A DNA stretch of 64,000 nt from assembly GCA_040767085.1 (NCBI GenBank), contig JAXGPF010000003.1:160001-224000 (forward strand), written 5' to 3'. The DNA is from Kiritimatiellia bacterium (GTDB lineage Bacteria > Verrucomicrobiota > Kiritimatiellia > JAAZAB01). Below are positions 30,451-58,268 of this stretch, in pieces (the first letter of the stretch is position 1; the number at the start of each line of letters is the position of its first letter). The notes under the pieces are model-generated. The model was given only the letters and a program-made list of their open reading frames with translations. It was not told the DNA's origin and did no database searches. The position numbers and the translations under genes are program-made.

Positions 30451-30522
<72 letters not shown>

Positions 30523-30708
30523 CCCTTAAAACCCTTGTAAAACAAGCCTTTTCTCGTGTTTCCCTGTTTCCCGGCAGCCCTGTAATTGCCATTTAGGGTA
30601 CAATTAGGGGAATTGTTTTCTTGACCGGCGCCCGGCATTGCCTTAGATTGCCCAGTGTAGCCCGGGAATGTTGGTTCCCCTTTTTGTACCCTGATCGGGA
30701 GGCTGGCC

Positions 30709-38902: not shown

Positions 38903-38911
38903 CCCACTGCA

Positions 38912-41900: not shown

Positions 41901-42025
41901 TGGCCGACGTATCACCTTCCGCCGAACAGTCCGCCCTGGGAAAACTTCTCGCCAACTGGAACGCGGTCATGGTCGGCAAGGCCGCCATGGCCGACAAGCG
42001 GGCCGGACAGCAGCAACTGCTTTAG
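38912..42025 (+). CDS. DUF1156 adenine-specific DNA methyltransferase
   Basis: TLHLWWAR (DUF1156), DMFAGGGTIPLEA (motif I), TDPPYYD (motif IV), Zn-ribbon cysteines. Confidence 0.9.
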   Translation: MQKNSDRRLIEDYLPIEAISAEASREKSIRKGHISTLHLWWARIPLVTCRAAIYSALVPASRFVPNNGADNKKKSLGRANSARFVKGLCRYPSETKPEDKISIERAIQEAQRHVLATHAERLTAELADWKAGQTGKPGWVDEFKWKPACCDTECGAGRGETVTIEDIVAGRAPRPRVMDMFAGGGTIPLEALRLGCEAYANDLNPVAHIIQLCTLVYPQKYGKPDPTARGMTGPKNEKGETTWGGLADEVRCWGDWVLNKVKAEIGDLYPLIPDPDYKGKKPALQPDWFKEHDTEDVPAGYLMPAAYFWTRTVRCKNPSCRATVPLVKQTWLCKKDGKYIAMRMIAPKGKKEVRFEIVETPSEARLGFDPTAFSKAGNASCPFCNTVADSDYVKVEGCEKRIGEQLMAIACTRPGARGKVYLSLADAPTADIHEEAIVQQLKALCGKTGLTVPNEPIVTDAKNSCWTPLYGFSTFGDIFTPRQKLCLLHFCCAVRSAEQHMKKDGISQEHTLAIATSLGILVDRVASQSNTCCIYHTGGEKIENSLGARSLPLTWDFVEANPLGNVTGSAANQIDWIVAVYEELQKVRNTAALNRGSAVELPYADASIDAVITDPPYYDNVPYANLSDFFFAWMKRSIGHLYPAHFAGTATPKKSEAVADATRHGGSKDAARKAYEKMMAAAFAGAHRALKPSGEMVVVYAHKTTLGWSTLVDALRGSGFTVVEAWPVIITISGGKVKVGKAMLADAIFLVARKRDATSKAGNYEADVVPELGNIVRERVDTLWDMGISGADLVIACVGAGLRAFTKYPRVEFANGEEVPAERFLMEVETVVLEAILGKLSKTVGAKAGLPAAWSVAQAGATLSGLDPATRFYVLWRYTYGGAELDAGEAIIFANGTHVELDGPHGLSTGVRRLVEKKKGKYKLLDFTERGQDEKLGISEESQAGSPTVDALHRILWLVAHKPPKIPDFLNETKPNVEQLRLVAQALAGPALKGGELADVSPSAEQSALGKLLANWNAVMVGKAAMADKRAGQQQLL
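41458..41490. repeat. 33-bp palindromic REP-like insert inside the methylase CDS
   Basis: CCTGCCTGC-N15-GCAGGCAGG perfect 9-bp inverted repeat; length divisible by 3. Confidence 0.65.
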
Positions 42026-42042
42026 AAACGACAGGTTTGGAC

Positions 42043-43608
42043 ATGGAACAAATATTCGTCAGTAGTGTGCAGAAAGAACTTCAGACGGAGCGGATTGCCG
42101 TGCGGGACTTCGTGCGTGGGAACGACTTGTTGCGGCAGTTCTTCAAGGTGTTTTTGTTCGAGGACCTGCCTCCTGCGGATCGGCGCGCGGATGACGTGTA
42201 CTTGGAGCAAGTCAAGGCAAGTCCGATCTACCTGGGGCTCTTCGGCCATGAGTATGGGCGTGCTAACACAGCGGGGATCTCCGCCACGGAGCAGGAGTTC
42301 GACTGCGCCACCCGGCTGCGCAAACGGCGGCTCATCCTGGTCGAGGGACGGGATGACAAAAATCGCGAGCCGAAGATGGCGGCGCTGATCCGGCGGGCGG
42401 GCGACGAGTTGGTCCGCCGGCGGTTCGAGAACACCGACGAACTGCTGCGCCTGCTGTACGGTAGCTTAATTCAATACCTGCAGGACCGCGGATTCGTGGC
42501 CGCGAAGGATTTTGACGCGGCGCCGTGCGAGAACGCGACCCTTAACGACATCTCGGTGGTGAACGTTCGTCGGTTCATCGAAAAGGCGCGGGCCGAACGC
42601 AAGTATGCTCTGCCGTTGGAGACCGCGCCCGAGCAGGCGCTGGCGCACCTGAACCTGCTCGCGGGTCGGATTCCGTCGAGGGGCGCGGTCCTGCTCTTCA
42701 GCGAGCGGCCTGAGCGGTTCATGCCGTCGGCGGAAGTTACCTGTCTGCATTTCCACGGCACCGAGGTGGCCAAGCCGATCCCGAGCCAGCAGGTGTATCG
42801 AGGTCCCTTGTTCGAGGTGGTGGACAAGGCGGTTGATTTCGTCATGGACCGCGTGGCGCGGCGTGTGGAGCCGGGCCAGGCGTCGGTGGCCAGCACCGTG
42901 ACCTATGAGGTGCCGCACGGCGTGATCCGCGAAGCAGTTGTGAACGCGGTGGCCCATCGCAACTATGCATCGAAGGCGGCGGTGCAGGTGATGGTGTTCG
43001 CTGACCGGATCGAGGTATGGAATCCGGGCGGCCTGCCCGAGAACCTAACGGTAGAGGAACTCCATCGCCCACACCATTCGGTTCCTCGCAACCGATTGAT
43101 CTGCGAGCCTCTCTATTTGGCACACTACATCGAGCGGGCGGGTACGGGCACGCTGGATATGATCCGGCTGTGTCGCGAGGCCGACCTGCCTGAACCGGAG
43201 TTCCGGCATGAAGGAGAACGATTCGTGGTCGTGCTCTGGCGGGACTGGCTGACGGATGCGGTTTTAGCGGGACTGGAGTTGAATGAGAGGCAACGGCAGG
43301 TACTTACCGTGATCAAGAGGGATGGCAGGATCACAAATGCCGTCTACCAGAGAGTCGCGAATGCCAGTCGGCCAACGGCGAAGCGCGACTTGGAGGATTT
43401 GGTTGCGAAGGGGGTTGTGGCACCGGCAGGGGCGGGACGCGGCGCCCGCTACGAGTTGCTCCGGAAACGGCTCACAAATGGCTCAAACGGCTCATCCGAG
43501 TTCAAAACAGGAAATGGCTCACAAATGGCTCACAGAGCAACAACGGGGACTCATCACAGACCCCTCAAAAAAGGGGACGCCAGAAGACCAAAAGAGGTAG
43601 AATCATGA
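42043..43608 (+). CDS. DUF4062 + HATPase_c_4 (RecG-C-like) + wHTH protein
   Basis: IFVSSVQKEL..ER, YLGLFG.EYG, SATEQE; REAVVNAVAHRNY, NPGGLP, ERAGTG; ITNAVY..TAKRDLEDLV. Confidence 0.8.
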   Translation: MEQIFVSSVQKELQTERIAVRDFVRGNDLLRQFFKVFLFEDLPPADRRADDVYLEQVKASPIYLGLFGHEYGRANTAGISATEQEFDCATRLRKRRLILVEGRDDKNREPKMAALIRRAGDELVRRRFENTDELLRLLYGSLIQYLQDRGFVAAKDFDAAPCENATLNDISVVNVRRFIEKARAERKYALPLETAPEQALAHLNLLAGRIPSRGAVLLFSERPERFMPSAEVTCLHFHGTEVAKPIPSQQVYRGPLFEVVDKAVDFVMDRVARRVEPGQASVASTVTYEVPHGVIREAVVNAVAHRNYASKAAVQVMVFADRIEVWNPGGLPENLTVEELHRPHHSVPRNRLICEPLYLAHYIERAGTGTLDMIRLCREADLPEPEFRHEGERFVVVLWRDWLTDAVLAGLELNERQRQVLTVIKRDGRITNAVYQRVANASRPTAKRDLEDLVAKGVVAPAGAGRGARYELLRKRLTNGSNGSSEFKTGNGSQMAHRATTGTHHRPLKKGDARRPKEVES

Positions 43609-43896
43609 CCGATCTATCACCTTTCAATCACCCAACCGCCGGAATCCAGCACCCGTTCGCGCCACGCAAGTCCCCACAGTGTGAGCAATTGACTGATAAA
43701 CGACCGACATTCGGGCTGAATGGACCGATCCGGCATACCCCCTCATCCTTGTTTCCAATGAATCCACCGACAATCTATCGACGTTCCGGCCGAATCTACC
43801 GATCAGGCATAGGACTGCGCGGGCGAATCGAACGCGACCGGAAAGGGCGGAACCGGACATGAACTACTTTGTTATCAGCAAGAATGGAGACATGAA

Positions 43897-46746
43897 ATGA
43901 CTACACCCAAGCCCTGGATTGAATCGGTCCGCCTGCACCCCGACGTGCTCAAGGAAAACGCCGATACTGACATCTTCGCCCTGGATCTCGGCCCTCTGGC
44001 CGACGGGTCCGGCACGGTTGCGTCGGTGTACCGTGATGCCGAGTCCTTTTTCCGGGCGTCCTACGTGACAGCCGGGTTGAAGTCGCTCCTCGATGAGGTT
44101 CTTAAACGGCTGTCAGGCAAGGGCGGCGCGCCTGTGCTCAAACTCATGACGCCTTTCGGCGGCGGCAAGTCCCACACGATGGCAGCCCTGCTGCATGCGT
44201 CGCGCGACCGCAAGGCGCTCGACGTGCTGCCCGAAGCCAAGGGACTTGCCAGCCCGACCGACGTGCGTGTCGCTGTGGTGGACGGACAGTTCTTCAACGC
44301 CCAGCAAGGCAAAGAGGCCGATGGCGTCCGCGTGCAGACACTTTGGGGTTGGCTCGCGTTGAAACTTGGTGGGAAGGCCGGCTATGAAACCATGCGCGCC
44401 AATGACGAGGCGCGGGTGTCGCCCGGCGGCGACGACCTCTTGAAGCTCTTTGGGGACAAACCGAACCTGATTCTGCTCGACGAGGCGCTGGAGTATTTGA
44501 TCAACGCTGGCGGAGTGAAGGTTCTGAAGACCGATCTTCGGGAGCAGACGCTGAACTTCCTGAAGGAACTGTCTGTTGCCGTTGCCAATGCCCCTCGGAC
44601 TGCGCTGGTCATGGCGTTGCCATCGAGCAAACCAGGCGAGACTCTGCACCACTTCCAGTTGCTACAAACCCTGGACCACTTCATCGGACGCAAGGATTCT
44701 CTTCGCGAACCCGTGGAACAGGACGAGGTGTTCAGGGTTATTCAACGACGATTGCTGGAGAAGATGCCGGATGACGAGGTGGCGGGGCTGGCCGCGTCGG
44801 CTTACCAGGAGCTTTTCACGCAGATGCGGAAGGCATACGCGGCAAACCCGGCGGAAGAACAGCAAGCCGGTGAAGAGGGTATTCAACTCCGGGACCGGAT
44901 GCGGATGGCCTATCCGTTCCATCCGGCCATCCTCGACTTGATGCGCCAACGCTGGGCATCCTTGCCGGAATACCAGCGCACGCGGGGCGCCCTGCGCTTC
45001 CTGGCGGCCTGTCTGCGGGCGCACCACAAGGCGGGTAAGAGCGGCGTCGTTCTTGGCCCTGGTGACGTAATGCTTGCCGACCACGAGGTCCGGCGCGCCA
45101 TCATAAAGGAACTCGGCCTGATGAACCGGTTCGACGCCGTGTTCCAATCGGACCTTGTGGGCGCAAACTCGACTGCCGGGCGGATTGACAAACTCCGCGC
45201 CAAGTCCAACCCTGCCGAAATTGGCAAGAATGTTGCCCAGCGACTTGCGTCTGCGATCTTCCTCTACTCCTTCGGCGGGTTGCGGCGAGAGGGTGCGGGC
45301 TCAACGGAAGTCCTCCCTCCCGGCGTGTCGGAGGCCGATCTGCTTGCCGGATGTGTGGGACCCGATCTCGACAGTCTGACGGCGAAGGCGTGCCTGTCGG
45401 AACTCAAGCAGTCTTGTCTGTACCTGCACTTCGACGGCGTGCGCTACTGCTTCAAGCAGGACCCCAACGTCACGTTGCTGATCGAGCAGGAAGCCGATGC
45501 GGTGGCACGAGATGAGAGCCTCGTCACTACGCAAATCAGGACGATGCTCGAAGAGCGGCTGGCGGGGCATCATGGTGCCATCGCCTGGCCTGCGGCCTCA
45601 GGCGAGATCCCCGACGAGCAGCCACGTTTCCAAATCGCCTATCTTCCCCTCTCGTTCAGCGGGTTGTCGGCGAAGGCACGGGACGCCGCGGCGCTCGATC
45701 TGGTCGAGAAATACGGCGGCACCCCCCGCAAGTACCGGAATGGCCTCGCGCTGGCGATCCCGGCAACAGACCAAGCAGAAAGTCTGCGACGGGAAGTCCG
45801 ATACCTCAGCGCGGTGGAAAGGGTCAGCAAGGCGGCCAAGAAGCATAATCTGACCAAGGAACAGGCCGACGAACTACGGGAACGGAAGGCCACACATGGC
45901 AGTGCCGTCGAGTCCGCTTTCGGAAAACTGTACCCCGAGGTCTGGCTCCCGAAGCAGGAACAAGGGAATATCGGCTTCGAGAAGATCACGGTTGGCGGAC
46001 GCCCTCTTCAAACGACCGTGAACGCGCAGCACCTTGCGATGGTTTTCGAACGGAACATGGAACTGCTGACTCAAGTCCAACCTCGCGTCTTCTCCAAGTT
46101 GAACCCCGTCAAGGTTGTGGAACTCTTTAAACTGGGCGAAGAAGATCCGCCGAAGATGGGCATTCGATGCAGTGACATTGTGAGCGGGTTCTACTCGTTC
46201 CTTGGCTTTACCCGGCTCACGACCAAGGAGATCGTGCAGGCTGCCATTGCTCGCGGCGTTCAGGAAGGTGTTTTCGGGTACTTCACCGGTTCAGCCCCGA
46301 CGATGGACGCTGGTGGGAAGTACCAAGTCGCGCGGAGCAAGGTGCGGTTTGAGGTTCCACTTGCCGCGGATGAGGTTGACCTCGAGTCCGGTTTCATCAT
46401 GCTGCCAGCGGTAATCCCCGCCGATATGTCTGCCGGAGACCCCGCGCAGGCGGGGGCGGCCCCGATCTCAGGTACCACTCTACCGCCAGGACCGACTCCG
46501 CCTCCTGTACATGGAACCGGACCAGGCCCGATGCCGCCGCCACCGCCGACGGAGAACTACGTCCAGTTGGAATTTACCGCCAACCGGGACCAACTCTTCA
46601 CCGCATGGAACGCCATTGCCAACCTGGCCGACATGGCCGGCACGGTGAAAGTCAATATTACCGCCGAATCCAACAAAGGTTTTGACAAGAGCAAACTTCA
46701 AAACGGCGTCTTGGAACCGTTACGGGAGGCAGACCTGATCTCATAA
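43897..46746 (+). CDS. DUF499 family ATPase
   Basis: LHPDV..FALDL, TPFGGGKSH (Walker A), LILLDE (Walker B), AYPFHP, QRTRGALR. Confidence 0.88.
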   Translation: MTTPKPWIESVRLHPDVLKENADTDIFALDLGPLADGSGTVASVYRDAESFFRASYVTAGLKSLLDEVLKRLSGKGGAPVLKLMTPFGGGKSHTMAALLHASRDRKALDVLPEAKGLASPTDVRVAVVDGQFFNAQQGKEADGVRVQTLWGWLALKLGGKAGYETMRANDEARVSPGGDDLLKLFGDKPNLILLDEALEYLINAGGVKVLKTDLREQTLNFLKELSVAVANAPRTALVMALPSSKPGETLHHFQLLQTLDHFIGRKDSLREPVEQDEVFRVIQRRLLEKMPDDEVAGLAASAYQELFTQMRKAYAANPAEEQQAGEEGIQLRDRMRMAYPFHPAILDLMRQRWASLPEYQRTRGALRFLAACLRAHHKAGKSGVVLGPGDVMLADHEVRRAIIKELGLMNRFDAVFQSDLVGANSTAGRIDKLRAKSNPAEIGKNVAQRLASAIFLYSFGGLRREGAGSTEVLPPGVSEADLLAGCVGPDLDSLTAKACLSELKQSCLYLHFDGVRYCFKQDPNVTLLIEQEADAVARDESLVTTQIRTMLEERLAGHHGAIAWPAASGEIPDEQPRFQIAYLPLSFSGLSAKARDAAALDLVEKYGGTPRKYRNGLALAIPATDQAESLRREVRYLSAVERVSKAAKKHNLTKEQADELRERKATHGSAVESAFGKLYPEVWLPKQEQGNIGFEKITVGGRPLQTTVNAQHLAMVFERNMELLTQVQPRVFSKLNPVKVVELFKLGEEDPPKMGIRCSDIVSGFYSFLGFTRLTTKEIVQAAIARGVQEGVFGYFTGSAPTMDAGGKYQVARSKVRFEVPLAADEVDLESGFIMLPAVIPADMSAGDPAQAGAAPISGTTLPPGPTPPPVHGTGPGPMPPPPPTENYVQLEFTANRDQLFTAWNAIANLADMAGTVKVNITAESNKGFDKSKLQNGVLEPLREADLIS

Positions 46747-47208: not shown

Positions 47209-48291
47209 ATGGCGCTTTGGAAAATTGGCGGCAACAAACCCCTAAAAGTAAAACAGACACACTTGCCTCAGGAAAAACTATTGGAGGAACATCTTGAAAA
47301 TTGGATTCAGATGGAACCAACCTTGTTGGGTGAGCCTCTTTTAATTATAGGCCGGCAAGTCATAATCCCCGATACCAAGGACAGATTGGACCTGCTCGCT
47401 CTGGACCCACAAGGTCAAGCCGTTATTATTGAGCTTAAACGCGGCAAGATTAAAGACCCGGTTGACATTCAAGCGCTTCGATACGCCAGCTACATTTCAA
47501 AATGGAAATTTGATCAATTTGAAAGCGTAGCACGTAACTTTTTCGGAAAATCGGGCGACTCGGAATTTAACTTTAACGAAGTTTTCGAAACTTTCTGCCA
47601 GGAATCCGGTTCTGATGAAGTCCCGGACTTAAACGAAGACCAACGGGTAATTATCGTTGGTTCTTCCGTGCGGGACAAGCTTGGTAGCGTCGCTTTATGG
47701 CTTAGAGATCATAATATTGACATCAAACTCATAGAGGTTACAGCCTATAAGGAAGGTGAAACAGTTTTTATCGAGCCCAATGTCATTGTTCCGCTTCCTG
47801 TCAGTAGATTTGCTAAAGTAGGGAAAGGGCCTACTAAAGGCACAGCGGCCTGGCAAACAGATGGGCAAACTTGGCATCTTGAAAAACGATGCAGCCCAAA
47901 AACAAAAGAGATGTTAATGGTGTTCGACAAAGACATCCGAGAAGCTCTTCCTGTTGATGGTCCACATTGGGATCAGAAACAATATGTTGCTTATCGCAAA
48001 AACAATTATAATTGGTTGTGTATCCATACTCTGCCAAAAACGCTGATTTTTGATTTTAATGTGAAAGCCGGCACGTTTAAGTCCGATATTCTTGCCAAGA
48101 CTTTGGGTGTCGTGAAATTCGATAAAGATGAAACTATGTCGGAAAAACTGAACCTGCCAAGTTCTGTTACTGTCCGCAACAGAAACGAAACGCGCGATCG
48201 TATTCGTCTTCGCGTGAAAGCTGATTTTGATCTCAAATCAAAAACATTTATCCAGTTTATGACCCAGGCATTTGAATTATGCCCGAAGTAA
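47209..48291 (+). CDS. NucS/DUF91-like PD-(D/E)xK endonuclease with C-terminal DUF5655-like domain
   Basis: E..LE.WI, RLDLLALD..G..VIIELKRG...QALRY; AAGGAG RBS. Confidence 0.75.
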   Translation: MALWKIGGNKPLKVKQTHLPQEKLLEEHLENWIQMEPTLLGEPLLIIGRQVIIPDTKDRLDLLALDPQGQAVIIELKRGKIKDPVDIQALRYASYISKWKFDQFESVARNFFGKSGDSEFNFNEVFETFCQESGSDEVPDLNEDQRVIIVGSSVRDKLGSVALWLRDHNIDIKLIEVTAYKEGETVFIEPNVIVPLPVSRFAKVGKGPTKGTAAWQTDGQTWHLEKRCSPKTKEMLMVFDKDIREALPVDGPHWDQKQYVAYRKNNYNWLCIHTLPKTLIFDFNVKAGTFKSDILAKTLGVVKFDKDETMSEKLNLPSSVTVRNRNETRDRIRLRVKADFDLKSKTFIQFMTQAFELCPK

Positions 48292-48405: not shown

Positions 48406-49317
48406 ATGTTCGAAAGACTATTCGCCAAGCGCGGGTTGTCGTTGGATCGGTTACGGGTTTTACTGGAAGTCCGCGAGGCGGGCAGCGTCGTCAAGGCGGC
48501 AGGGGGGGATCCGGTCCGGCAAAGCCAGTATAGCCGGCAATTAAAGGAACTGGATGAATATTTCAGTGTGGAATTGACCTGTCGCAAGGGGCGGCATCTG
48601 GTATTGACCGCCGCGGGCGAAGAATTAGCAAAATTGGTGCAAGAGCATTTTGTGGCACTTGGCAATTTCAACAGGCGCGTGGCAAACGAACCGGTGCCGG
48701 TCTTCATCGGCGCGGGTGAAAGCCTGATCCACTGGCTGTTGTTGCCGCTTGCCGGCAAACTACAGCGCGAATTGCCCGGGATCACCCTGCGAATGATCAA
48801 CCTGACTTCCACTATGATCAATCAAAAATTGGTTGATCGGGAGATAGACCTTGGCATTCTCCGCAAAGATGCCATTGCGCCCACCATTTTGCATCATGTG
48901 ATTGGTAAAATCGTTTACTCGCTATATGCCCCGAAAGCATTGTTCTCGGGCTCTGTCGCTAAAAAGACTGCTCTGTTGAATAAACTGCCGGTCGCAACAA
49001 TGCCCGGCAATTCATCGTTCGGACGGCATTTGCACCAGTTGGCTGAAAAAGCCAATATCCGTCTCAATGTCCGGCTTGAATGTGACACTTTTACCGGATT
49101 GGCACAGGCGGTCCAAACCGGAGAATACGCGGCCATCCTGCCCGATCTGGCCGCTTACGCCATGGATGAGCAAACCGACAAAATCACTTTGCCACTGCTT
49201 AAACCGTTGACGCGCGAAATAAGTCTGGCCTGGCTGCAACGCAAGGTTGATTTATGTCCCGAATGGGAAAAAACACGACAGTGGCTTACACAAAATCTTA
49301 ATATGACTATAAAGTAA
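48406..49317 (+). CDS. LysR family transcriptional regulator
   Basis: LDRLRV..AGS..KAA..QSQYSRQLKEL..LT.AGE HTH; IDLGI substrate-binding domain. Confidence 0.9.
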   Translation: MFERLFAKRGLSLDRLRVLLEVREAGSVVKAAGGDPVRQSQYSRQLKELDEYFSVELTCRKGRHLVLTAAGEELAKLVQEHFVALGNFNRRVANEPVPVFIGAGESLIHWLLLPLAGKLQRELPGITLRMINLTSTMINQKLVDREIDLGILRKDAIAPTILHHVIGKIVYSLYAPKALFSGSVAKKTALLNKLPVATMPGNSSFGRHLHQLAEKANIRLNVRLECDTFTGLAQAVQTGEYAAILPDLAAYAMDEQTDKITLPLLKPLTREISLAWLQRKVDLCPEWEKTRQWLTQNLNMTIK

Positions 49318-49418
49318 TGTGTTATGCGATATTAGCACTGGATAATAATATCGGCAATTGATACATTGCCCGTGTTGAAACAAAAAAGCAGAAACAGTAT
49401 TAGCGGGCTTTATTATTT

Positions 49419-51023
49419 ATGGCCGCAGCAACAGATCAAAATATCGGCATGACAGTGTTCGAACTGCAATCGTTTGAATCCTGGCAAAATCGGATAGAAG
49501 CGGCCGCACAATCCGCCGGCGCCGGCATCACGCGCAAGGGGGCCGGTTGCCAGCTCTGGATGCCGAACCAGTTACTTCCCTTGCGCAAAACCAACTTGCA
49601 TTATGCCGATGGCGTTAAAATTTTCCGGGAATGGCTTGGCCCACGCCGCAACGCATTAGCCATTATCCCTCATCGCGTCTATTTTGAACCCGGCGCAAAT
49701 ACCCCCAGTATCAAGCCGGAACGGATTTTGATTGAAGGCGCACGTCCGGCATTGCCCAGCCCGGACAAACGAATCAGCTCATGTTTGGAATGGGCCGGGA
49801 TTTTATCAAAACATATTGATGGATTTGGTCCTGACCCTATCACGGTCGGACGAGTTCGGCATGATTTACACAAATCAACGCAATTGATTTTTGGCGGCGG
49901 CGCAGTTGTCACACCCGGTTCTAAAATCAGTTTGGCACTGATGAGCCACGGAGGCTATTCCACGCCTGCCCGGCTTCAGATTGAACTCGTGGCGCCCTCC
50001 GCCGCCGCCGGCAAAACAAAAACATATCAAACACTTTTGGCAAATGCCTTGAAGCGCTGTAAATGCCACGGCGTGATCTCGATGTTGACTTACGACAAAT
50101 TGCTGACACGCTTACAATCCGGAACGCCGGTAGCGACGCCCGGCACTTGTATTCTGCTCGCTGTAACCGGCAAAAAAGGCCTGCCGCTGGCCCCGGAATC
50201 CGAGACGCTGATAAATCTCATGGCTAATTTCAACATCCCGTTTCGCATGTTCTCCGTTGACAATCCGGCGCTGAACTGGTCGGCTTTGGATCAAGCCGGA
50301 TCGTTGATTACCGGTGCGGGCGGCATTCCATTCATCACCAAATTACCCTGGCCGGATGATATTGGGGAGCCATTCATTCTGGGAGTGGATGTTGGGCACC
50401 CGCCGACAGGCGAGGAAAGCCAGGTTGTCATTAGTTTAATGGATCATCAAGGTGTTTTGCTGGGGAGTTGGCGCCAATCCCAGCCGCGTGATGAGACAAT
50501 TCACACCGAAACGCTGCAAAATGGATTGACGTGGGCGCTTGAAAAAGCACGGTCAAATATTGCAAACGCAACCCCATCATTCCTGGTGCTGCGCGATGGC
50601 AGGTTGCATAAAGGCGAAAACCCCACATTTTACAGCCAGATACTGGGGCCAAAGACAACATTGATTGAATTTTCCAAACACAACACGCCTGAAATGTTCA
50701 TTATGGGTGCATGCCCGGCATCCGCCAAAGCCGGAACAGAGTGCCTTTTAACCGGTAGTTCCACACCATTTATCACTCCGGTGTCAGCGCGCATGAGCAG
50801 TGATTTATCCCGGACATTCAAAATCAACATGCCACCGGCATGGGATGGCCTGGGGCTTGGAATTGACAGAGTCAGCGAGATTGTGGTAGGATTATCTTAT
50901 ACTTCGGGACTCGGGTTAGCGCCACACGCATTACCCGGCCCAATTTACTGGGCGGACGGCATTGCCGCCATTTGCGAGCACAACCATCAATTTGCGGGGC
51001 AGAATATAATGGAGGGAAGATGA
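49419..51023 (+). CDS. Prokaryotic Argonaute (L2-MID-PIWI), 534 aa, putative DEDD catalytic tetrad
   Basis: LIFGGG/GYSTP L2 linker, AGGIPF, ILGVDVGH (D324), RDETI (E359), VLRDGR (D393), EFSK, LPGPIYWADG (D513). Confidence 0.8.
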   Translation: MAAATDQNIGMTVFELQSFESWQNRIEAAAQSAGAGITRKGAGCQLWMPNQLLPLRKTNLHYADGVKIFREWLGPRRNALAIIPHRVYFEPGANTPSIKPERILIEGARPALPSPDKRISSCLEWAGILSKHIDGFGPDPITVGRVRHDLHKSTQLIFGGGAVVTPGSKISLALMSHGGYSTPARLQIELVAPSAAAGKTKTYQTLLANALKRCKCHGVISMLTYDKLLTRLQSGTPVATPGTCILLAVTGKKGLPLAPESETLINLMANFNIPFRMFSVDNPALNWSALDQAGSLITGAGGIPFITKLPWPDDIGEPFILGVDVGHPPTGEESQVVISLMDHQGVLLGSWRQSQPRDETIHTETLQNGLTWALEKARSNIANATPSFLVLRDGRLHKGENPTFYSQILGPKTTLIEFSKHNTPEMFIMGACPASAKAGTECLLTGSSTPFITPVSARMSSDLSRTFKINMPPAWDGLGLGIDRVSEIVVGLSYTSGLGLAPHALPGPIYWADGIAAICEHNHQFAGQNIMEGR

Positions 51024-51048: not shown

Positions 51049-52557
51049 ATGACACAAGTGCGGATAAATAACTTTAAATGTTTTGAAGAGGCTATTGTGC
51101 CGTTGCGCCGCTTGACCTTTATTTATGGACAAAACAGTTCCGGTAAAAGCACGATTTTTCAGGCAATTAATCTGATCCGGCTGGTCATTATGCAACTTAA
51201 TAAAAAAGAGAGTAGATACAGCAAAAACAAGGAACAAGACAAGTCGCGCGAAGATGAAGATATCGGAATGGATGCTTGGAAACGGATCCCTTGGTTTCGC
51301 GGTGGCATTTCAGCCATGCAACGGGACAAAAACGATCCCATTAAAATTGGCTTTACATTGAAATTGGAAGGAGATGGCACAGAAGGAAGCACCTATATTA
51401 CCACAGATATGTCTGTTGGTAATAAGTGGGATTTAGGAAAACACGGCAATTCCCTGCCGGACAAAATTGTTTTTGGCTTTCAATATGGCAAACTTGATGC
51501 GTTCCGCGACAAGGATAACAAATATTTAGATTTAACGATCACGATAAACAATCGCGTGCCAGAAAACCAACAAAGCGTTTTTAGCCGGCAATTCGGCTTT
51601 GTGCAAGTGTCACCGACCCTGTTGGATTGGTTTTGCAGGGAATATAGTCCCGCAAGCGAGCAAATATTCCGGGATTATTTTAATAGCCCATTACCCTTGA
51701 ATTGGGGCGAGGTGCCCTTTTTTAAATCCTTTAACAAAAAGCCTAAATATCCCAATAATGATCATGCGTTTAATAAGGCCTACAAATGGGTTAATGGTTC
51801 GCTTGAACGCGCGTGGGGAGAAATAGAGGATTATCTTAAACCAGCACTCTTGATGGGGTTTTATTCCGGACATATATCCGCCGATGAACATTATATAGGG
51901 CACGATATTCGAAATACTAACGTAAGATTTCATTTAAAAAAAGAATTTGATGATTTCCTAAATAATGAAAAGGTTATAAACCAGGTAAACGAAGCTCTCA
52001 ACCTTCTGGATACTCCACATCGTCTGGATTCAAAGAAAGGCATTCTTGATCTGCGCAAGCAAACATCTGAAAAAGGGAGCGTTTTGACGGAAGTTGGTTA
52101 TGGTATCCAATACCTTGTCCCGAGGCTTTTGTTGCTTTTTGGCGGAGAGCATCCACTATGCATGATCGAGGAGCCAGAAGCACATGTGCATCCGCGTTTA
52201 CAAGCCAAGCTTGGTTCATTGTTTTTAAAACAATCAGCATCTGCTGATATGATGCGGCAACTTATAATAGAAAGTCATAGTGAAAATCTTATTTTGCAAA
52301 TTAAACGCAATATTCATGATATGGCTGAAGCGGATGCAGAAACAGCGAAAAAATGGGCTGATAACATTTTGGCGCTTTACGTTGATTACTCACAGGACAC
52401 TGCAACGCCAGATATTGAAGCCGACGCGGAAAAGCCACAGGCAAACGTTGAGGCAACTCCCCGGATATCATACATCCGAATTGACAGCGAGGGTAATTTT
52501 ATGGATTATTGGCCTAAAGGATTCTTCCCTGAACGTCAAGAAAACCTTTACTACTGA
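51049..52557 (+). CDS. ABC/AAA_15-type ATPase with DUF3696-like C-terminus
   Basis: INNFKCF, YGQNSSGKST, VGYGIQYLVP, IEEPEAHVHP, IESHSE, IDSEG...WPKGFF. Confidence 0.88.
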   Translation: MTQVRINNFKCFEEAIVPLRRLTFIYGQNSSGKSTIFQAINLIRLVIMQLNKKESRYSKNKEQDKSREDEDIGMDAWKRIPWFRGGISAMQRDKNDPIKIGFTLKLEGDGTEGSTYITTDMSVGNKWDLGKHGNSLPDKIVFGFQYGKLDAFRDKDNKYLDLTITINNRVPENQQSVFSRQFGFVQVSPTLLDWFCREYSPASEQIFRDYFNSPLPLNWGEVPFFKSFNKKPKYPNNDHAFNKAYKWVNGSLERAWGEIEDYLKPALLMGFYSGHISADEHYIGHDIRNTNVRFHLKKEFDDFLNNEKVINQVNEALNLLDTPHRLDSKKGILDLRKQTSEKGSVLTEVGYGIQYLVPRLLLLFGGEHPLCMIEEPEAHVHPRLQAKLGSLFLKQSASADMMRQLIIESHSENLILQIKRNIHDMAEADAETAKKWADNILALYVDYSQDTATPDIEADAEKPQANVEATPRISYIRIDSEGNFMDYWPKGFFPERQENLYY

Positions 52558-52564
52558 TTTTGCT

Positions 52565-53752
52565 ATGCTCAATTATTGCACCATAGACCCATTTCTCGTT
52601 ACGATGGCGAGAACACCAACAATCCCCTCATCGGGTAACAATATACAAATATCTACTACTTCGGAACCAGCTCCCTCGTCTACTGTCCCCAGACAGGTTG
52701 GTCACAGTTCAATCCGATATTTTCTGAAGAGAGTTGCCAGCCGGCACATTTTGTGCGACTTTTTCCTGGGAGTGAGTGGATCCGGAACGTGTAAATATCG
52801 AAAATATTTTGAGGACATAGTTTTTGCCGGTGAAAATCATTTTGCCGTCTACTGGCGGGAATTTTCTTTGGCTCGACATTTTGAGCGATTAAAAACAGAT
52901 TTTACGAATTTCCGTGATAAGGATCGCCTTGCGAAAATATGCCCGGATGTTTGCCCAAAATCATCTGCGGGTGCTGATGACTGGGGCAACTGGGCCATGA
53001 AAATGGGCTACCTGTTGGCAGGATGCGCCGCCGACGATATAACAATAATTATTGCGCACCATAAGACGGTTGAAATGCTGAATGCGCTACTTAACCATTT
53101 TAAATGTGCGCTTACCCCTGAAACAAGCGCTTATATTGAAAAGTATCGGCGAAACTGCGTAACCGTAGAGAACCAAGCTGAAGCAAGCGGCTTGAAGTTG
53201 AGCGGCAACTTGGAGGTCCTCGAAAATTCGTGGTTTTTGCTTTCAAGCGTGGAACGGTTTGACCGCCGGATAAATCTTTCAATAGGCCTAAATTTAGCGG
53301 GAATACCGGTGACCGAGTTTTTAAAATTGTTAAACCCTATTCGCCAATGCTTTCCGCATGTCTACGCAATACAATCCTCCAAGCCACCAAATAAAACCTT
53401 GGCTTTATGGAAACAAAACAATTTTAATATCAATATAATTACCACTGATAGTTTACCAAAAGAGCATAAAGGGCTTTGGCATGATCGGTTTATTGTATTT
53501 GCTTCACATCCTCGAGAGCAGGGCATGCGATCACCACACCGGTTTGTAGCGTTGGTATTTTCAGCGCCATTTGAGCAGATATTTTATGTGCCTGAACAAC
53601 ATTTTATGCGCCATAATACTTTTTATTTGCGCCAAGGTACTTGCCTTTTGCGCTGTGACAGTGATTGTTCTAATACTCCAGGGTCTCATGAAAATATAGC
53701 AAGCTTTCTTGCAAATACTTCAGCTACGCTCCCCCCTTTATCTGAACCATGA
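52565..53752 (+). CDS. Hypothetical protein with C-terminal HDRF motif (possible PLD-like nuclease)
   Basis: ATG 7 nt after the ATPase stop; WHDRFIVF; the ORF-track start at 52280 overlaps the ATPase and is rejected. Confidence 0.55.
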   Translation: MLNYCTIDPFLVTMARTPTIPSSGNNIQISTTSEPAPSSTVPRQVGHSSIRYFLKRVASRHILCDFFLGVSGSGTCKYRKYFEDIVFAGENHFAVYWREFSLARHFERLKTDFTNFRDKDRLAKICPDVCPKSSAGADDWGNWAMKMGYLLAGCAADDITIIIAHHKTVEMLNALLNHFKCALTPETSAYIEKYRRNCVTVENQAEASGLKLSGNLEVLENSWFLLSSVERFDRRINLSIGLNLAGIPVTEFLKLLNPIRQCFPHVYAIQSSKPPNKTLALWKQNNFNINIITTDSLPKEHKGLWHDRFIVFASHPREQGMRSPHRFVALVFSAPFEQIFYVPEQHFMRHNTFYLRQGTCLLRCDSDCSNTPGSHENIASFLANTSATLPPLSEP

Positions 53753-55233
53753 AGACAAACGCTATGCCTGTCTCAAACAAAGTATCGTGTGGCATCGGAA
53801 ACTATCCTGATGCTTTATTACGGCTATCTCAACAGCATCAGCCTTTTTGCGATTGGCTCTTGCTCGGACGTTACATTCTTCTGGGAGACGATGGAATTTC
53901 CAATGATGAGCGCAAGGATATCAAGCGGACGAAAGAATATCAACAATTTGCCAATATGTTTTTTGATTTAATCCAGAATATCGAGCGTAATACTCTTGTT
54001 ATTAACTCCGAAACCGCAGACATCCTGACTGGTCTTGCGGCATTTTATGTTTCTTTACGATGTGTTGTGTCGTACAAAAAGAATGTCATGATCAAGGCCA
54101 TGCAATACAACATATTGTTGTATAATTCTATAATATCGGCAATGAAGAGAAACAAAATACACTCATCTATATTTGCCGAAAACATAGTCGCTGGATGTGA
54201 AATTGTGCTCAAGGCAACCGCTAATGACAAGAAGAAAACCCCAGAAGCGCTGGATGCCGGCGTTGATCTGTTGGGTAAATTAATGGAAAGAGTTCCAGGT
54301 GCAACGCCGCTGGGTGACGCCATATTGCGTTATATACGTGATTGGCAGGCGCTGGGCTCCATTGAGGATTCCTGGCTTGAACAAAAACGTGATCAGGCTT
54401 TGTTGCGTTATGTAGGGATAGACGACAACTATTTAAGCAAATATGAAGAATTCAAGGCATGGACGAATTATCACCCTGATGATAATGGTGCAGCAAAAAG
54501 ACTTTTCTTTTTTGCTAAACCTTTAGTTGAAGTGTTTTGCCGGGAAAAACGTTATGAAGACGCCGCTAAAGTATGTGTTGATATTTATAATTTGCACATT
54601 CTTTCAGACACATACAAGCAAGCCATGTTTTGCTTGTTTTACGACTCTTTAACCTTGGATTTGTCTAACGCCAAATGTGAGATCAACCTCGCCCTAAATG
54701 CGCTTATAATTATTTTTGACAAACTAAAACCGGCGGATAATTTTGTTTCAGCCCATTTTGCTGAATTAAAATTATGGGCTGCTATTGGACATATTCAGGC
54801 AAGACGTTCAAAAGACAACGCATCCATTATTAAAGATTTGCCAGAACCCTTGCCCATATCTGAACATGCTCAAAATAAAATTGCCTGGGAAATTTATCGC
54901 CGTTGCAAGCTTTGTATAAAAACTGACCCAATAATGGTTATTGACATGCTTGAACTATATGCTCATTTATCGGAAATAGAAAAGCCGTCTTTGCTTCATT
55001 CCATGATGTTGCAATACGCAACACGTGTTGGTTCATCTTGGACTGGTTTTATTAAATTTATGCGTACACGAGATATGGCTACTTTCCGCCCGGAGGATTT
55101 CAAGACGACAGTTTATGGCAATCGCACATATAACAGTTTGGTTGATAACACTATAAAATGCCTATATCAAACAATAAAACATCAAAAATGGCGTATTATG
55201 GAATCGGCAAGACCCACCGTCAAGGCAATATAG
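53749..55233 (+). CDS. Alpha-helical/TPR-like protein; N-terminal half of a split TPR/OB-fold protein
   Basis: ATGA overlap with the upstream gene; PSLLHS...FIKF...FRPEDF...YNSL recalled from TPR+OB (DUF7017-like) proteins. Confidence 0.6.
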   Translation: MKTNAMPVSNKVSCGIGNYPDALLRLSQQHQPFCDWLLLGRYILLGDDGISNDERKDIKRTKEYQQFANMFFDLIQNIERNTLVINSETADILTGLAAFYVSLRCVVSYKKNVMIKAMQYNILLYNSIISAMKRNKIHSSIFAENIVAGCEIVLKATANDKKKTPEALDAGVDLLGKLMERVPGATPLGDAILRYIRDWQALGSIEDSWLEQKRDQALLRYVGIDDNYLSKYEEFKAWTNYHPDDNGAAKRLFFFAKPLVEVFCREKRYEDAAKVCVDIYNLHILSDTYKQAMFCLFYDSLTLDLSNAKCEINLALNALIIIFDKLKPADNFVSAHFAELKLWAAIGHIQARRSKDNASIIKDLPEPLPISEHAQNKIAWEIYRRCKLCIKTDPIMVIDMLELYAHLSEIEKPSLLHSMMLQYATRVGSSWTGFIKFMRTRDMATFRPEDFKTTVYGNRTYNSLVDNTIKCLYQTIKHQKWRIMESARPTVKAI

Positions 55234-55239
55234 GCCGTA

Positions 55240-56699
55240 TTGGACTATCCCCAAAATATCCTGTGGGATTTTGCGCGGATAGTGTTATTTTCTAAGAAAG
55301 TGAGTGAAAAACGGATTTTTCTGACCATCTGGAAAGTGAAATAGTGGTCTCCAACTGGAAATCCCGTATAATTGGGGTTGAACCAACCAAGAAGGAGACC
55401 ACCGGAATGAATAATAGTCAGACGGCATTCAAATTGCGATCTCAACTTTTAAAATATTTGGGGATATTTTCACCCCATTTTTCCAAACCAGCATTGGCTT
55501 TTCTTGGTGACATGCTCTATGGGATCCAGGCATCCAAAGATATCAAGCTGAGTTGCATTGGCAGGGGCCTGGACGAGGTGATTTCGCTCAAGAAAACCGA
55601 AGAGCGATTAAGCCGGAATCTGGGATGTGAGGGGCTGGCTCAGAGGGTATCGGATTGTTTGGCGTGTGAAGGCGCCAGGCACATAGGGAATGACACCTTG
55701 ATTGTGATAGATCCGACCGATATTCGGAAGCTCTACGCCCGGAAAATGCCATATTTGGCAAAAGTGCGAGACGGGAGCAGCGGCGAGATCGGCAACGGGT
55801 ATCATTGCGGTGTTGCAGTGGCTTGCGAAAGCGGCGGACGCAGTATAGTCCCTTTGCATCTGCGCCTATGGTCGAGCACCGCGCCTGATTTCAAAAGTGA
55901 AAACGATGAGATTGAACAAATCGTCAGCACTATCTGCGCGGGTGCAAAACGACGCGGGATTTACGTTGTGGACCGCGGCGGCGACCGTGACAAGCTGTTT
56001 AATGTGTTAATTGACAGACGCTTGCGATTCATTGTGCGTTTGATTGGCCACCGCCATCTGTTGTGGAGAAAACGCCCCATCCTGGCTGAAAAGCTAGTTG
56101 GTAAATGCCGGATTTCTCACGTTGAAACCATCCGTCGTGAAACTGCCGAAGGTGAAAAAATTTACCGGATTGAATACGGTGCAATTAATGTGTTTCTGCC
56201 GGAACATCCCGATAAACCATTGCGCATGGTCGTTGTGAAGGGATTTGGAGCAAAGCCCATGATGCTCCTGACGGACTTGGCCGGTGGAGATTCCCGGAAA
56301 GGTCTCTGGCAGGTCATTGAAGGATACCTGAGTCGCTGGCGGGTCGAAGATGCGATTCGCTACATCAAGCAAAGCTATCGCCTTGAGGACATCCGCCTGA
56401 TGGATTACACGCGGCTTCGCAACATGATGGCCATGCTGCTGGCCACTGTTTTCTTTGCTTCCGTGTGGCTCGGCAAATCTTTACGCAAAAGCATTCTGGT
56501 CGGCAACATCACCCGCGTTTCCAAGCGACTTTTCGGTGTAGTGGAGTTCCATTATTACGCTATCGCTGACGGCATTGCCGCCTTGTTGCGCCGTTTCGGA
56601 AAATGGCACGGCGCCTGGAATGGCCCCGCCCGAAACACTGTCTCACACCAATTGGAATTAGCCTTGTTTGATTCAGGATAAAAAATGGGGATAGTCCAA
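55240..56699 (+). mobile_element. Complete IS4 family insertion sequence, 1460 bp
   Basis: Perfect 14-bp TIR TTGGACTATCCCCA; 13-bp target duplication AATATAGGCCGTA (55227-55239 and 56700-56712). Confidence 0.95.
55407..56681 (+). CDS. IS4 family DDE transposase
   Basis: IVIDPTD, VVDRGGD, YLSRWRVEDAIRYIK (YREK signature); AAGGAG RBS. Confidence 0.92.
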   Translation: MNNSQTAFKLRSQLLKYLGIFSPHFSKPALAFLGDMLYGIQASKDIKLSCIGRGLDEVISLKKTEERLSRNLGCEGLAQRVSDCLACEGARHIGNDTLIVIDPTDIRKLYARKMPYLAKVRDGSSGEIGNGYHCGVAVACESGGRSIVPLHLRLWSSTAPDFKSENDEIEQIVSTICAGAKRRGIYVVDRGGDRDKLFNVLIDRRLRFIVRLIGHRHLLWRKRPILAEKLVGKCRISHVETIRRETAEGEKIYRIEYGAINVFLPEHPDKPLRMVVVKGFGAKPMMLLTDLAGGDSRKGLWQVIEGYLSRWRVEDAIRYIKQSYRLEDIRLMDYTRLRNMMAMLLATVFFASVWLGKSLRKSILVGNITRVSKRLFGVVEFHYYAIADGIAALLRRFGKWHGAWNGPARNTVSHQLELALFDSG

Positions 56700-56872
56700 A
56701 ATATAGGCCGTAAAGTATACGGAAGCACTTGATGAAGCATCCGTAGAGCTATAACCATAATACACCCACTCCCGTATAGACGGGGGTGGGTGATTTTTAA
56801 AGAGATCTCTTTGCTTGCTCTTGTATAGTTTAGCCTTCGTAATTGGTATTGCCAAATATTCAGGATATTAAG

Positions 56873-58147
56873 ATGGATAATGAATCAAAAACCACTGCGA
56901 AGAAGGATGACGCAGAACATCGCCTTGCGGAGTTGCATAACACGCAAAAAGTAAAGAATACCGGTGACGCGCCTTCAAAAGCCGGAAATGATGACTTCGA
57001 TATAGAGATCAAAAAACAGACCGCCGATACTGAAGAAGATTACCAGGCGCTAATTGACGCATACGAAGACGAATGCGCCCCAGTTGATGAATTGGATTGC
57101 CCGGACGATAGCACAGACGATATTTCTGATTTGTCTTTCGCGCTCGATTTTGTCCAACGCTATTACAAGCAGTGTTCACAACAAACATACGCGGCATATT
57201 ACTACGCAAAACTGCTTTTATTCGCTGATCATAAAAATCAGGCACAAACAGTGTTGCTTGAAGACGCGATTAGTCTTTCCAACAAATATTGGTTTTGGAC
57301 AACGCTCGCTGATACTTTCCAAAACAATGACGACAAAAAACGCCAGGCATGTCTATGCAAGGCGATATTGACAGCCCGGCCCGAAGACGCAAAATATCTA
57401 AATCCTTTGCGCAGGGATTTGCGCGACATATTTAAAGACAACCCAGAATATAACACTGAATCCGACAATTTACCGCTTTATCAGAAATACGCTATTCCAG
57501 CCGATGCAATCGCGACTACAACTCTTAATTGGTTGCCGGCTGTTGTGTTGGGCGTCAAGGATGGAAGCAATATCCGCGTATTATTTCGACAAGATGATAT
57601 GTATTTGTGCGCGAAAGGCACACTAAACGACAACAAATGGTCACACCTTAAACGCGGCGCTTCTATTAGCGTAAAAATCACGGGGAACGCACCTGACATC
57701 ATGGTTCTTTGCATTAAAATACGACGTGCATCAGACTGGAGTATTTTGCCATGGGAGTTTGCAGTTGTTGTGCAAAAATATTCAGCTCGCAAAAGCGTAA
57801 TATTGGCTTTAGTAAAGGGGAAAACACTGATTGTGTCCTCGCGGATATGGCGGGAAGCGGTGAATTGGGAATTAGGCGACATACTGCAAATTAAAATCTT
57901 GCGCGCGGATGGCGAGGAAATAATTGTCGCCTCGAAAATATCACATAAAACCCCCGATTTTGTAAAAAAGACAACCAGTGTCGTTTTGCAAATTAATAAT
58001 GAAGGATGCGCTTGGGTTGATGATGATACTTTTCTGCCGCGCAGACTGACCGCATAGCTTGGTTTAATGAAAGGCGACAAGGTAAGCCTGACAGCGGTTG
58101 AAACCGCGCAAAACAAGTGGGAAACTATTCAAGCCGATAAAAATTGA
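56873..58147 (+). CDS. Acidic linker + TPR + OB-fold-like protein (C-terminal half), with in-frame TAG at 58055-58057
   Basis: YYYAKLL..A, YWFWTTLAD, ACLCKAI TPR; beta-rich C-terminus; the frame continues 29 codons past TAG (LGLMKGDKVSLTAV...) to TGA 58147. Confidence 0.6.
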
Positions 58148-58151: not shown

Positions 58152-58260
58152 GAGACGCTGTAGAGGTGTGTTTGAGGCCGATGAATGCAATTGCTCGGCC
58201 GGTTATTACGGGTCAGTATGACCCAATGTCGATTCGATGTTAAATCCTCTGCAGCGTCTC
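58152..58260 (+). ncRNA. Candidate structured ncRNA associated with the RT
   Basis: 15-bp closing stem GAGACGCTGTAGAGG / CCTCTGCAGCGTCTC (one U-G pair on + strand) enclosing hairpins GGCCGA..TCGGCC and GGGTCA-GTA-TGACCC. Confidence 0.65.
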
Positions 58261-58268
58261 TTTATTTT

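Follow-up and report, generated by a model that had tools for sequence, protein, structure and literature searches.

A stretch of 64,000 nucleotides from a Kiritimatiellia bacterium (GenBank assembly GCA_040767085.1, contig JAXGPF010000003.1, positions 160,001 to 224,000), referred to here as the window, carries a gene for a 534-residue protein related to the Argonautes. This gene probably encodes a catalytically competent, compact prokaryotic Argonaute (pAgo) of the AmAgo family, in which a reduced N-L1-L2 part would be followed by MID and PIWI domains and which would serve in defence. The protein is predicted with high confidence to be an active guide-directed nuclease, and a role in defence is proposed with fairly high confidence. 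The use of RNA guides against DNA targets, as in AmAgo, is suggested by analogy and with moderate confidence at best.

Fold and domain layout of the window Argonaute

The Argonaute open reading frame (ORF; Table 1) begins with ATG, and the reverse strand of the same interval, read in the matching register, contains many stops. A gene for a LysR-type regulator lies directly upstream and ends 101 nt before the Argonaute start, so the N terminus is complete and not cut off, as had been stated in a preliminary description of the window made from the nucleotide sequence. A second possible start, M11, was considered because some homologues begin at a conserved 'MT.F', and would shorten the protein by only 10 residues. 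All the motifs named in that description were found at the claimed positions, with GVDVGH from residue 322 giving D324, PRDET giving E359, RDG from 392 giving D393 and YWAD from 510 giving D513. The MID stretch reads ESETLINLMANFNIPFRM from residue 260 and LITGAGG from 296.

AlphaFold2, run on a 98-row alignment, returned a model with a mean predicted local distance difference test score (pLDDT) of 96.1 and a predicted template modelling score (pTM) of 0.94. The model was compared with the PDB using Foldseek, and the best 50 matches listed were all Argonaute or PIWI proteins, with template modelling scores for the query (TMq) of 0.53-0.73. Among them were Siwi (5guh; E 7.6e-23, TMq 0.70), SIWI (9nhc; TMq 0.73), MpAgo (5i4a; TMq 0.67) and AfAgo, which consists of MID and PIWI only (8ok9_A; TMq 0.57), and Siwi, hAgo2, KmAgo and MpAgo had E values of 1e-23 to 1e-18. 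Model and matches together indicate the MID plus RNase H-like PIWI fold by which a pAgo is recognised, and the PIWI fold on which the preliminary description had made its reading depend was thus recovered.

A profile of the family was then compared with the PDB and matched 42 sequences at E ≤ 1, of which 40 were Argonautes and the two weakest were unrelated proteins. MpAgo (1.8e-16) was the best match, others included AaAgo (9.3e-15), 9iad (1.3e-14), CpAgo, KmAgo, human Ago1-3, TtAgo and PfAgo, and no SPARTA, SPARDA or AfAgo chain was among the 42. We take the pAgos matched in this way to be long pAgo nucleases. The profile was needed because a search with the single sequence gave MpAgo alone, at E = 1.2.

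The MID domain begins after ~185 residues. Profile position 149 aligned with residue 343 of the 745-aa pAgo 9iad, indicating that the protein is ~190 residues shorter here than a full-length pAgo, and the full N-L1-PAZ-L2 half that marks the long-A class was not found in the window protein. When residues 1-190 were modelled alone (pLDDT 93.6), the best Foldseek matches, though weak, included SPARTA and SPARDA chains ~410-450 aa long (E 8.6e-4 to ~1e-2, TMq 0.39-0.46), which, judged from their length, are presumably the PAZ-less APAZ subunits. The same residues also weakly matched the N-terminal side of human Ago2 (TMq 0.48) and 8znj_B, a chain of the short-pAgo system from Sulfolobus, and small domains of the BamC, KA1 and AMPK type scored about equally. 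APAZ is described as the counterpart of N-L1-L2 in long pAgos (PMC10954474). The layout of the model therefore seems to be N-L1-L2(reduced)-MID-PIWI, in which PAZ is either lacking or vestigial, and since an equivalent of N-L1-L2 would be built in cis, no APAZ partner would be expected. The preliminary description had placed the protein among the short pAgos, which does not agree with such a module in residues 1-185 or with the lack of SPARTA, SPARDA and AfAgo among the profile matches. Its statement that there is no APAZ-effector partner was borne out, in that none was named among the window neighbours scanned with Pfam and PADLOC. SIR2, TIR and Mrr domains were likewise named in none of these neighbours (10 scanned by Pfam, 8 by PADLOC).

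The protein was matched by the PADLOC pAgo models at 4.6e-13 and, at a level close to these, by the PADLOC model 'PprPIWI' (1.5e-10), while a scan with NCBIfam gave no match. A tblastn search against plasmids found a single weak Piwi match, in Halobaculum, with 25% identity. The nearest Atlas cluster is named 'hypothetical', with Piwi on 18% of its members, and routine annotation would probably leave the window gene 'hypothetical' as well. Genes of this kind are probably under-annotated, because the window Argonaute is missed at standard Pfam thresholds.

Extent of the family and conservation of the catalytic tetrad

A word-indexed search returned 11 proteins including the query, all of 502-592 aa except for one fragment of 374 aa. 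A profile built from 10 proteins, namely the query with nine of its relatives, was then searched against 1.84 billion representatives of clusters at 50% identity. It matched 237 of them at E ≤ 1e-3, and stricter limits of 1e-10 and 1e-30 left 182 and 136, respectively. Among the best 150 of the 237, near-full-length matches were 503-579 aa long, shorter ones resembled fragments, and only two proteins exceeded 600 aa (701 and 818 aa). The length of the window protein is therefore common to its family, and the protein is not a deletion derivative of longer homologues, which the preliminary description had raised as a way in which it might be wrong.

Next, 14 loci of relatives (L001-L014) were taken from genomes, the window locus being the fifteenth. 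L001-L005 come from metagenome-assembled genomes (MAGs) of Verrucomicrobiota, and their Argonautes are 40-55% identical to the window protein. Those of L006-L014 are 25-34% identical and derive from a Patescibacteria group MAG, Actinomycetota, Alteromonas, Porticoccaceae, Haloferula, Alcanivorax, Coraliomargarita and unclassified MAGs. Wherever the contig end spares the gene, the Argonaute is 522-556 aa long. The homologue in L007 (9842-11403) is spread over two ORFs of 286 and 225 aa, representing a frameshift or pseudogene, or an assembly error.

Conservation was assessed in an alignment of 98 full-length members, with identity to the query down to 20%. D324, E359 and the triplet R392-D393-G394 were each found in 98/98 sequences, and position 513 was Asp in 86, Asn in 11 and His in one, which corresponds to the DEDX pattern. 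The window protein thus carries, at homologous positions, the tetrad (X = D, H, N or K) by which active Argonautes are recognised, and the earlier claim of an intact DEDD nuclease site held. In the family profile, GxDxGH aligned with 'GIDLSH' of MpAgo and 'GIDISR' of AaAgo, the E359 position with 'NEK' of MpAgo, RDG with 'RDGR' of MpAgo and YWAD with 'HYSD' of AaAgo, the TtAgo match stopping at residue 660. The positions matched in MpAgo and AaAgo are presumed to be the catalytic residues of those proteins. The sole difference between 5ux0 and 5i4a, RAG for RDG ('RAGR'), falls precisely at the D393 position.

A compact, PAZ-poor and catalytically intact Argonaute is therefore not a one-off, as at least 237 clusters contain proteins of ~530 aa with an almost invariant DEDX tetrad, and studies so far have been confined to the small side branch of AmAgo. 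The family is among the smallest natural Argonaute nucleases, making its members candidates for small programmable nucleases. In one published scenario PAZ was lost after inactivation of PIWI (PMC10954474). PAZ reduction in the window family, as in AmAgo, stands alongside strong conservation of the active site.

A non-canonical MID pocket

The canonical MID motif is given as YKQTNK (PMC6299218). Its positions were mapped by profile alignment to 9iad and CpAgo together with column counts over the 98 members. The canonical Q position corresponds to R276 in the window protein (Arg in 88/98), the N position to Q292 (Gln in 82/98) and the last K position to G299, where the family has Ala in 52 sequences, Gly in 18, Leu in 11 and Lys in eight. 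The canonical Y-x-x-x-K falls in a stretch that is unconserved and gapped in the family. Other conserved MID columns are K/R253 (69/98), an aromatic residue at 275 (F275; 96/98) and S288 (82/98). The pocket looks non-canonical and polar or basic in sequence. The preliminary description had rightly noted that the canonical Y-K...Q...K residues are missing, and had gone on to suggest a hydrophobic, MpAgo-like pocket for a 5'-hydroxyl (5'-OH) guide; this second part is not supported, given that the family conserves R276, K/R253 and Q292.

Among solved structures MpAgo is the best profile match of the window family, and MpAgo and DecAgo/DreAgo/AshAgo are likewise described as keeping DEDX intact while PAZ is reduced and the MID is non-canonical (PMC12865457). 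However, the MpAgo chain is ~640 aa long and its pocket is hydrophobic and 5'-OH-binding according to published work, whereas the residues conserved in the window protein are Arg, Lys and Gln. Genes of the MpAgo type are also reported to be CRISPR-associated (PMC12865457), whereas in the window no CRISPR or cas gene adjoins the Argonaute.

Relation to AmAgo

AmAgo of Alteromonas macleodii is a 540-aa protein with MID at 190-322, PIWI at 323-518 and the tetrad D331, E366, D398 and D514, which its authors placed in the long-A clade and for which nuclease activity was shown in 2024 (Agapov et al. 2024; PMC11162769). Activity in a protein of this size class had thus been described before, and the premise of the preliminary description that active pAgos have ~700 or more residues does not hold for AmAgo. 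According to the same article, AmAgo cuts DNA only with 5'-OH RNA guides beginning with A, accepts guides of up to 30 nt and binds them weakly. The gene for a HEPN RNase, Agap, which makes the guides, lies upstream with an overlap of 4 or 8 nt, and the pair protects E. coli from phage (PMC11162769). In a 2026 article AmAgo is grouped with MpAgo and DecAgo/DreAgo/AshAgo into a larger clade that uses RNA guides against DNA and is marked by a reduced PAZ and a non-canonical MID pocket (PMC12865457).

The window protein resembles AmAgo in size, in the start of its MID domain (~186 against 190) and in the spacing of the tetrad (D324/E359/D393/D513 against D331/E366/D398/D514); the [Y/R/H]KQK MID motif is missing from both, and profile search places the two in the same family. 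Of the traits of the AmAgo group, a length of ~540 aa, DEDX and a MID without [Y/R/H]KQK were all found in the window protein, and an upstream overlapping Agap-HEPN gene and monophyly with AmAgo were not. AmAgo is the only characterised member found for this compact family of ~520-560 aa and, as far as the sequences indicate, stands for only a minor branch within a far larger family that is otherwise unstudied.

The position of AmAgo was established with Data Set S1 of Ryazansky et al. 2018, which lists proteins with MID variants, among them A. macleodii WP_061096135.1 ('long'), Calothrix WP_019493534.1 ('long') and Woeseia WP_068616618.1 ('long_trun') (PMC6299218). The first of these accessions is AmAgo (PMC11162769). 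MID fragments of these rows recur in the family; one stored protein (P0157) has WLKYLD, AFQLCS and YSRHG, and another (P0110) is closely similar to the A. macleodii fragment. None of 160 stored family proteins contained the MID motifs listed there for D. reticulitermitis and Bacteroides. The D. reticulitermitis row is assumed to be DreAgo.

In four of the loci (L008, L011, L012 and L014) a gene for ~300 aa, split in two in L011, lies directly upstream of the Argonaute. The copy in L008, from Alteromonas oceani, is identical to published Agap over about its first 100 residues, and a three-sequence Agap alignment contains an HEPN-like stretch [R/K]-N-x-x-x-H with N and H invariant. Because the MID motifs match published sequences and an upstream Agap is present, these four loci are read as AmAgo-Agap systems. 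Identity inside the AmAgo group is 31-58%, and the window protein is 23-27% identical to its members over nearly the full length (E 1e-24 to 1e-40). In the L008 protein, the nearest stored relative of AmAgo, positions 276/292/299 are S/N/K, as against R/Q/G in the window protein.

LysR, ATPase and the putative Argonaute operon

Four closely spaced genes, all in one direction, form an operon-like arrangement that opens with the Argonaute gene (Table 1). The Argonaute gene is separated by 25 nt from a gene for an ABC-type ATPase, which lies 7 nt from a gene for a 395-aa protein; this gene in turn overlaps by 4 nt that for a 494-aa protein. The ATPase matched the PADLOC models NsnB (1.1e-36) and AriA (1.3e-24). 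For the 395-aa protein nothing was found in Pfam, NCBIfam, PADLOC or Atlas, and for the 494-aa protein there was no match in Pfam or NCBIfam.

A homologous ATPase occurs near the Argonaute in five of the six window-clade loci (the window, L001, L002, L003 and L005). It directly abuts the Argonaute in the window, L001 and L003, it belongs to one string of genes with the Argonaute in L005, and in L004 it was not found within the fetched flank. Outside the window clade it was found in L010, in two copies, and in L012. The proteins encoded after the ATPase in other loci are ~320-377 aa long and fall into unrelated groups. An effector shared beside the ATPases was rejected, since the 395-aa and 494-aa proteins of the window were unrelated to the post-ATPase proteins of the other loci by BLAST and small hidden Markov models. 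In L002 (11614-16121) and L004 (11397-15660) the Argonaute is followed not directly by an ATPase but by homologous proteins of 1077-1159 aa and 333-362 aa; tetratricopeptide repeats were detected only in the L002 copy of the larger one.

A LysR gene was found beside the Argonaute or its operon in all six window-clade loci and in none of the nine others (tblastn, E ≤ 1e-4). L009 and L013 say nothing on upstream partners, because contig ends cut both upstream. The LysR homologues of L001-L005 are 38-60% identical, and in L001, L002, L004 and L005 the gene is divergently transcribed. As the adjacency is conserved and the orientation divergent, control of the Argonaute by LysR is plausible. In L003, the closest genome locus, a YhcG-type PD-(D/E)XK nuclease (DUF1016; 8685-9851) lies between LysR and Argonaute. 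The AT-rich LysR-Argonaute spacer of the window contains two inverted repeats, the first of them a candidate operator (Table 1). The corresponding spacers of L002 (9892-9913) and L004 (9805-9826) have in common the palindrome (T/C)ATGACT-N4-AGTCAT(A/G), a possible binding site for LysR as operator in this sub-branch. A conserved LysR operator was rejected, as only these two loci have the common palindrome and the window repeat differs.

In the window clade a LysR regulator and an ATPase cassette take the place of the guide-making RNase of AmAgo. This arrangement raises the questions of where the guides come from and of whether transcription of a slicer pAgo can be controlled by a small molecule. 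In open-access text, no paper on LysR-linked pAgos was found, nor any description of the LysR-linked window clade or of the majority of the family defined below by Arg and Gln at 276 and 292.

Proposed mode of action and its alternatives

The most likely interpretation of these data is that a short single-stranded guide would be loaded through the unusual MID pocket of K253, R276 and Q292 and would pair with invader nucleic acid, whereupon the target would be cut by a DEDD RNase H-type centre of D324, E359, D393 and D513. Long guides would probably be tolerated, because there is no PAZ pocket for the 3' end. RNA-guided cleavage of DNA is the leading guess, by analogy with AmAgo and the MpAgo/AmAgo/DecAgo clade; the analogy does not fix the chemistry or origin of the guide, since the MID residues differ and no Agap-HEPN gene is present. 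Expression would probably be controlled by the clade-specific LysR, and the likely role would be defence against phages or plasmids.

Several observations weigh against this interpretation. Its match to Pfam Piwi (PF02171) reached 19 bits, under the cut-off of 28.9 (E 9.2e-4), and the fold matches of its N-terminal part were weak (TMq 0.39-0.54). The clustering of the four acidic residues is inferred from homology alignment, and placement in long-A would follow from where AmAgo was put by its authors, together with the PDB profile matches. An Agap-HEPN homologue was found in none of the six window-clade loci (the window and L001-L005), and the co-transcribed ATPase and two further genes suggest that the nuclease may not act alone. 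In a FastTree phylogeny (LG+gamma; 109 family sequences, 532 columns, midpoint-rooted with no outgroup), the AmAgo clade comprised 12 leaves with support 1.0 and the window protein lay outside it. The window clade formed a separate group of 15 leaves with support 0.995, in which ten stored proteins joined the window protein and those of L001-L003 and L005; the tree did not include L004. Positions 276/292/299 read Q/S/V/A, L/N/I/T and K in the AmAgo clade, and positions 253/276/292/299 read K/R, R, Q and G/A in the window clade. As the MID signature differs at 276/292/299, guide specificity is not transferable from AmAgo. Most leaves outside both clades read R-Q-A at these three positions, and the R-Q type accounts for ~80 of the 98 sampled family members. 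It could be that the R-Q compact pAgos are a slicer system of their own, with an arginine-based 5'-end pocket whose guide chemistry differs from that of canonical pAgos and of AmAgo alike, a LysR-sensor switch in the window clade and an obligate ATPase/effector cassette; this is put forward as a speculative and rather doubtful proposal.

The guide itself could instead be DNA, the protein then being a DNA-guided DNA nuclease in which R276 and K253 bind a 5'-phosphorylated guide in a rearranged pocket. The Arg at the canonical Q position and the Lys or Arg in the preceding loop suggest phosphate binding, most active pAgos are described as using DNA guides on DNA targets (PMC11162769, PMC12865457), and no guide-making RNase is encoded adjacent to the window Argonaute. 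However, AmAgo uses RNA guides, as does MpAgo (PMC12865457), the best profile match of known structure, and none of the canonical Y, K and final K is retained, so that we regard a DNA guide as a possibility to be taken seriously, if not a likely one. The operon-like spacing of the four genes, the recurrence of the ATPase in five of six window-clade loci and in L010 and L012, and the matches of the ATPase to the defence models NsnB, AriA, HEC-03B and PDC-M55A would also fit an Argonaute that is mainly a sensor, whose target binding, with or without nicking, activates the ATPase and the two downstream proteins in the manner of long-B and short pAgos. This appears unlikely. The post-ATPase proteins are unrelated between loci, and the ATPase stands on either side of the Argonaute or two genes off and is not seen in the L004 flank, a pattern that fits independent ATPase-effector modules merely sharing defence islands; full DEDX conservation argues, moreover, for selection on cleavage itself.

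With 534 aa, no PAZ and no APAZ-effector gene nearby, the protein might also be a true short pAgo with kept or regained catalysis that works without APAZ. All short and long-B pAgos are reported to be without DEDX and short pAgos to carry HK/RK MID motifs, and 31 long pAgos without PAZ are listed (Ryazansky et al. 2018, PMC6299218). Short pAgos are thus recognised by MID and PIWI only, no DEDX, an HK/RK MID motif and an APAZ-effector partner, and this combination was not found in the window Argonaute, from which the HK/RK...Q...K motif is absent. Short pAgo-APAZ systems have an inactive PIWI, effector domains and canonical 5'-phosphate MID motifs, as against an intact tetrad in a single chain without an effector domain. 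The SPARTA/SPARSA/SPARDA and AfAgo/AfAgo-N systems resemble the window protein in the overall shape of a 'PAZ-less long pAgo', an N-L1-L2-like part with MID-PIWI. The 185-residue N-terminal module in cis, with its weak N-L1-L2/APAZ-like fold matches, the absence of SPARTA, SPARDA and AfAgo chains from the 42 PDB matches and the published long-A placement of the homologue AmAgo (PMC11162769) make a true short pAgo very improbable. A regulated DNA-metabolism factor, helping in replication or decatenation as proposed for PsPIWI-RE and TtAgo and switched by LysR in response to a metabolite or stress, would account for the LysR gene beside the Argonaute in six of six loci and recalls the ciprofloxacin sensitivity reported for PsPIWI-RE knockouts (PMC10991935). 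Yet the gene lies among defence genes in a low-GC, tRNA-linked, integrase-bearing island, its relatives stand beside restriction-modification, CRISPR-accessory, Vsr and toxin-antitoxin genes, and neighbours apart from LysR are not conserved between loci; a housekeeping role is accordingly held to be improbable. The window protein resembles PIWI-RE as a divergent bacterial PIWI without standard PAZ or N. The PsPIWI-RE gene, however, exceeds 2.35 kb (~780 aa) and overlaps an upstream dinG; its product has a unique N-domain, and its operon includes a nuclease besides the DinG helicase (PMC10991935). Where neighbours were scanned with Pfam, in the window as in L001-L014, none was named a DinG-type helicase. 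Identity with PIWI-RE was rejected on these grounds of size and operon.

Genomic setting and other loci

The LysR-Argonaute cassette is placed by its surroundings in a horizontally acquired defence island. What looks like a genomic island runs from the tRNA-Gly and integrase genes at its left edge to at least 60 kb of the window (Table 1). The GC content is 0.60-0.68 over much of the initial 30 kb, 0.56-0.63 in the early island and 0.43-0.50 over 46-60 kb; at the left edge it drops from ~0.64 upstream to 0.43-0.62 downstream.

Table 1. Features of the window, with positions counted from its first nucleotide.
Feature	Position	Strand	Remarks
tRNA-Gly(TCC)	30452-30524		island left edge
Phage-integrase-family gene	30709-32367		552 aa; island left edge
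SNF2 helicase with NOV_C	33039-36587		Hma-like set
Schlafen/NB-ARC STAND-like protein	36584-38902		Hma-like set
DUF1156 protein	38912-42025		Hma-like set
DUF4062/HATPase_c_4 protein	41779-43608		Hma-like set
DUF499 protein	43897-46746		PADLOC HmaC 5e-107
PDC-S11 candidate defence protein, NucS-like N-terminal region	47209-48291		just upstream of LysR
LysR-type regulator	48406..49317	+	303 aa; Pfam LysR_substrate 6.5e-23, HTH_1 4e-11
Perfect 8-bp inverted repeat CGATATTA-N11-TAATATCG	49327..49353	.	AT-rich LysR-Argonaute spacer; candidate operator
Second repeat GGCAAT-N6-ATTGCC	49353-49370	.	LysR-Argonaute spacer
Argonaute ORF	49419..51023	+	ATG start, 534 aa
Putative reduced N-L1-L2 (APAZ-like) module without full PAZ, residues 1-185	49419..49973	+	AlphaFold2, Foldseek, profile
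MID domain, ~residues 186-300	49974..50318	+	beta-alpha repeat in model, column counts
PIWI domain, residues 306-534 and stop codon	50334..51023	+	Foldseek, profile alignment
D324 codon	50388-50390	+	catalytic tetrad
E359 codon	50493-50495	+	catalytic tetrad
D393 codon	50595-50597	+	catalytic tetrad
D513 codon	50955-50957	+	catalytic tetrad
AAA_15/AAA_21 ABC-type ATPase	51049..52557	+	502 aa; Pfam AAA_15 9.6e-22, AAA_21 1.9e-19
395-aa protein, family without match	52565..53752	+	start is first ATG past ATPase stop
494-aa protein of unknown function	53749..55233	+	residues 353-491 match PADLOC PDC-M16B 1.8e-16
DDE transposase	55344-56681		after Argonaute cassette
DUF7017 protein	56843-58057		after Argonaute cassette
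Reverse transcriptase	58185-59987		after Argonaute cassette

Other partners were seen in more distant loci. A fusion of ~705 aa between a ParE-toxin-like part and a UvrD-type helicase is encoded immediately upstream of the Argonaute in L006 (7881-10010) and L007 (7718-9835), overlapping the Argonaute gene in L006, and is a candidate partner other than Agap or LysR. In L010 (4701-16533) the Argonaute is flanked by a divergent CARF-HEPN (Csx1-like) gene, by genes for Cas_APE2256 and for a RAMP-domain protein, and by two pairs of an ATPase and a 300-aa protein. This neighbourhood is reminiscent of the CRISPR linkage that has been reported for MpAgo-type proteins.

Within the island of the window, the genes from 33039 to 46746 form an Hma-like defence gene set. 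A homologue of the PDC-S11 protein, 28% identical, is encoded ~1 kb downstream of the Argonaute in the Actinomycetota locus L007 (12400-13425, minus strand). In L003 (15226-16533) a DUF7017 protein with a TOTE-type S1/CSD part lies downstream of the Argonaute-ATPase pair, with 23% identity and an E value of 1.9e-15.

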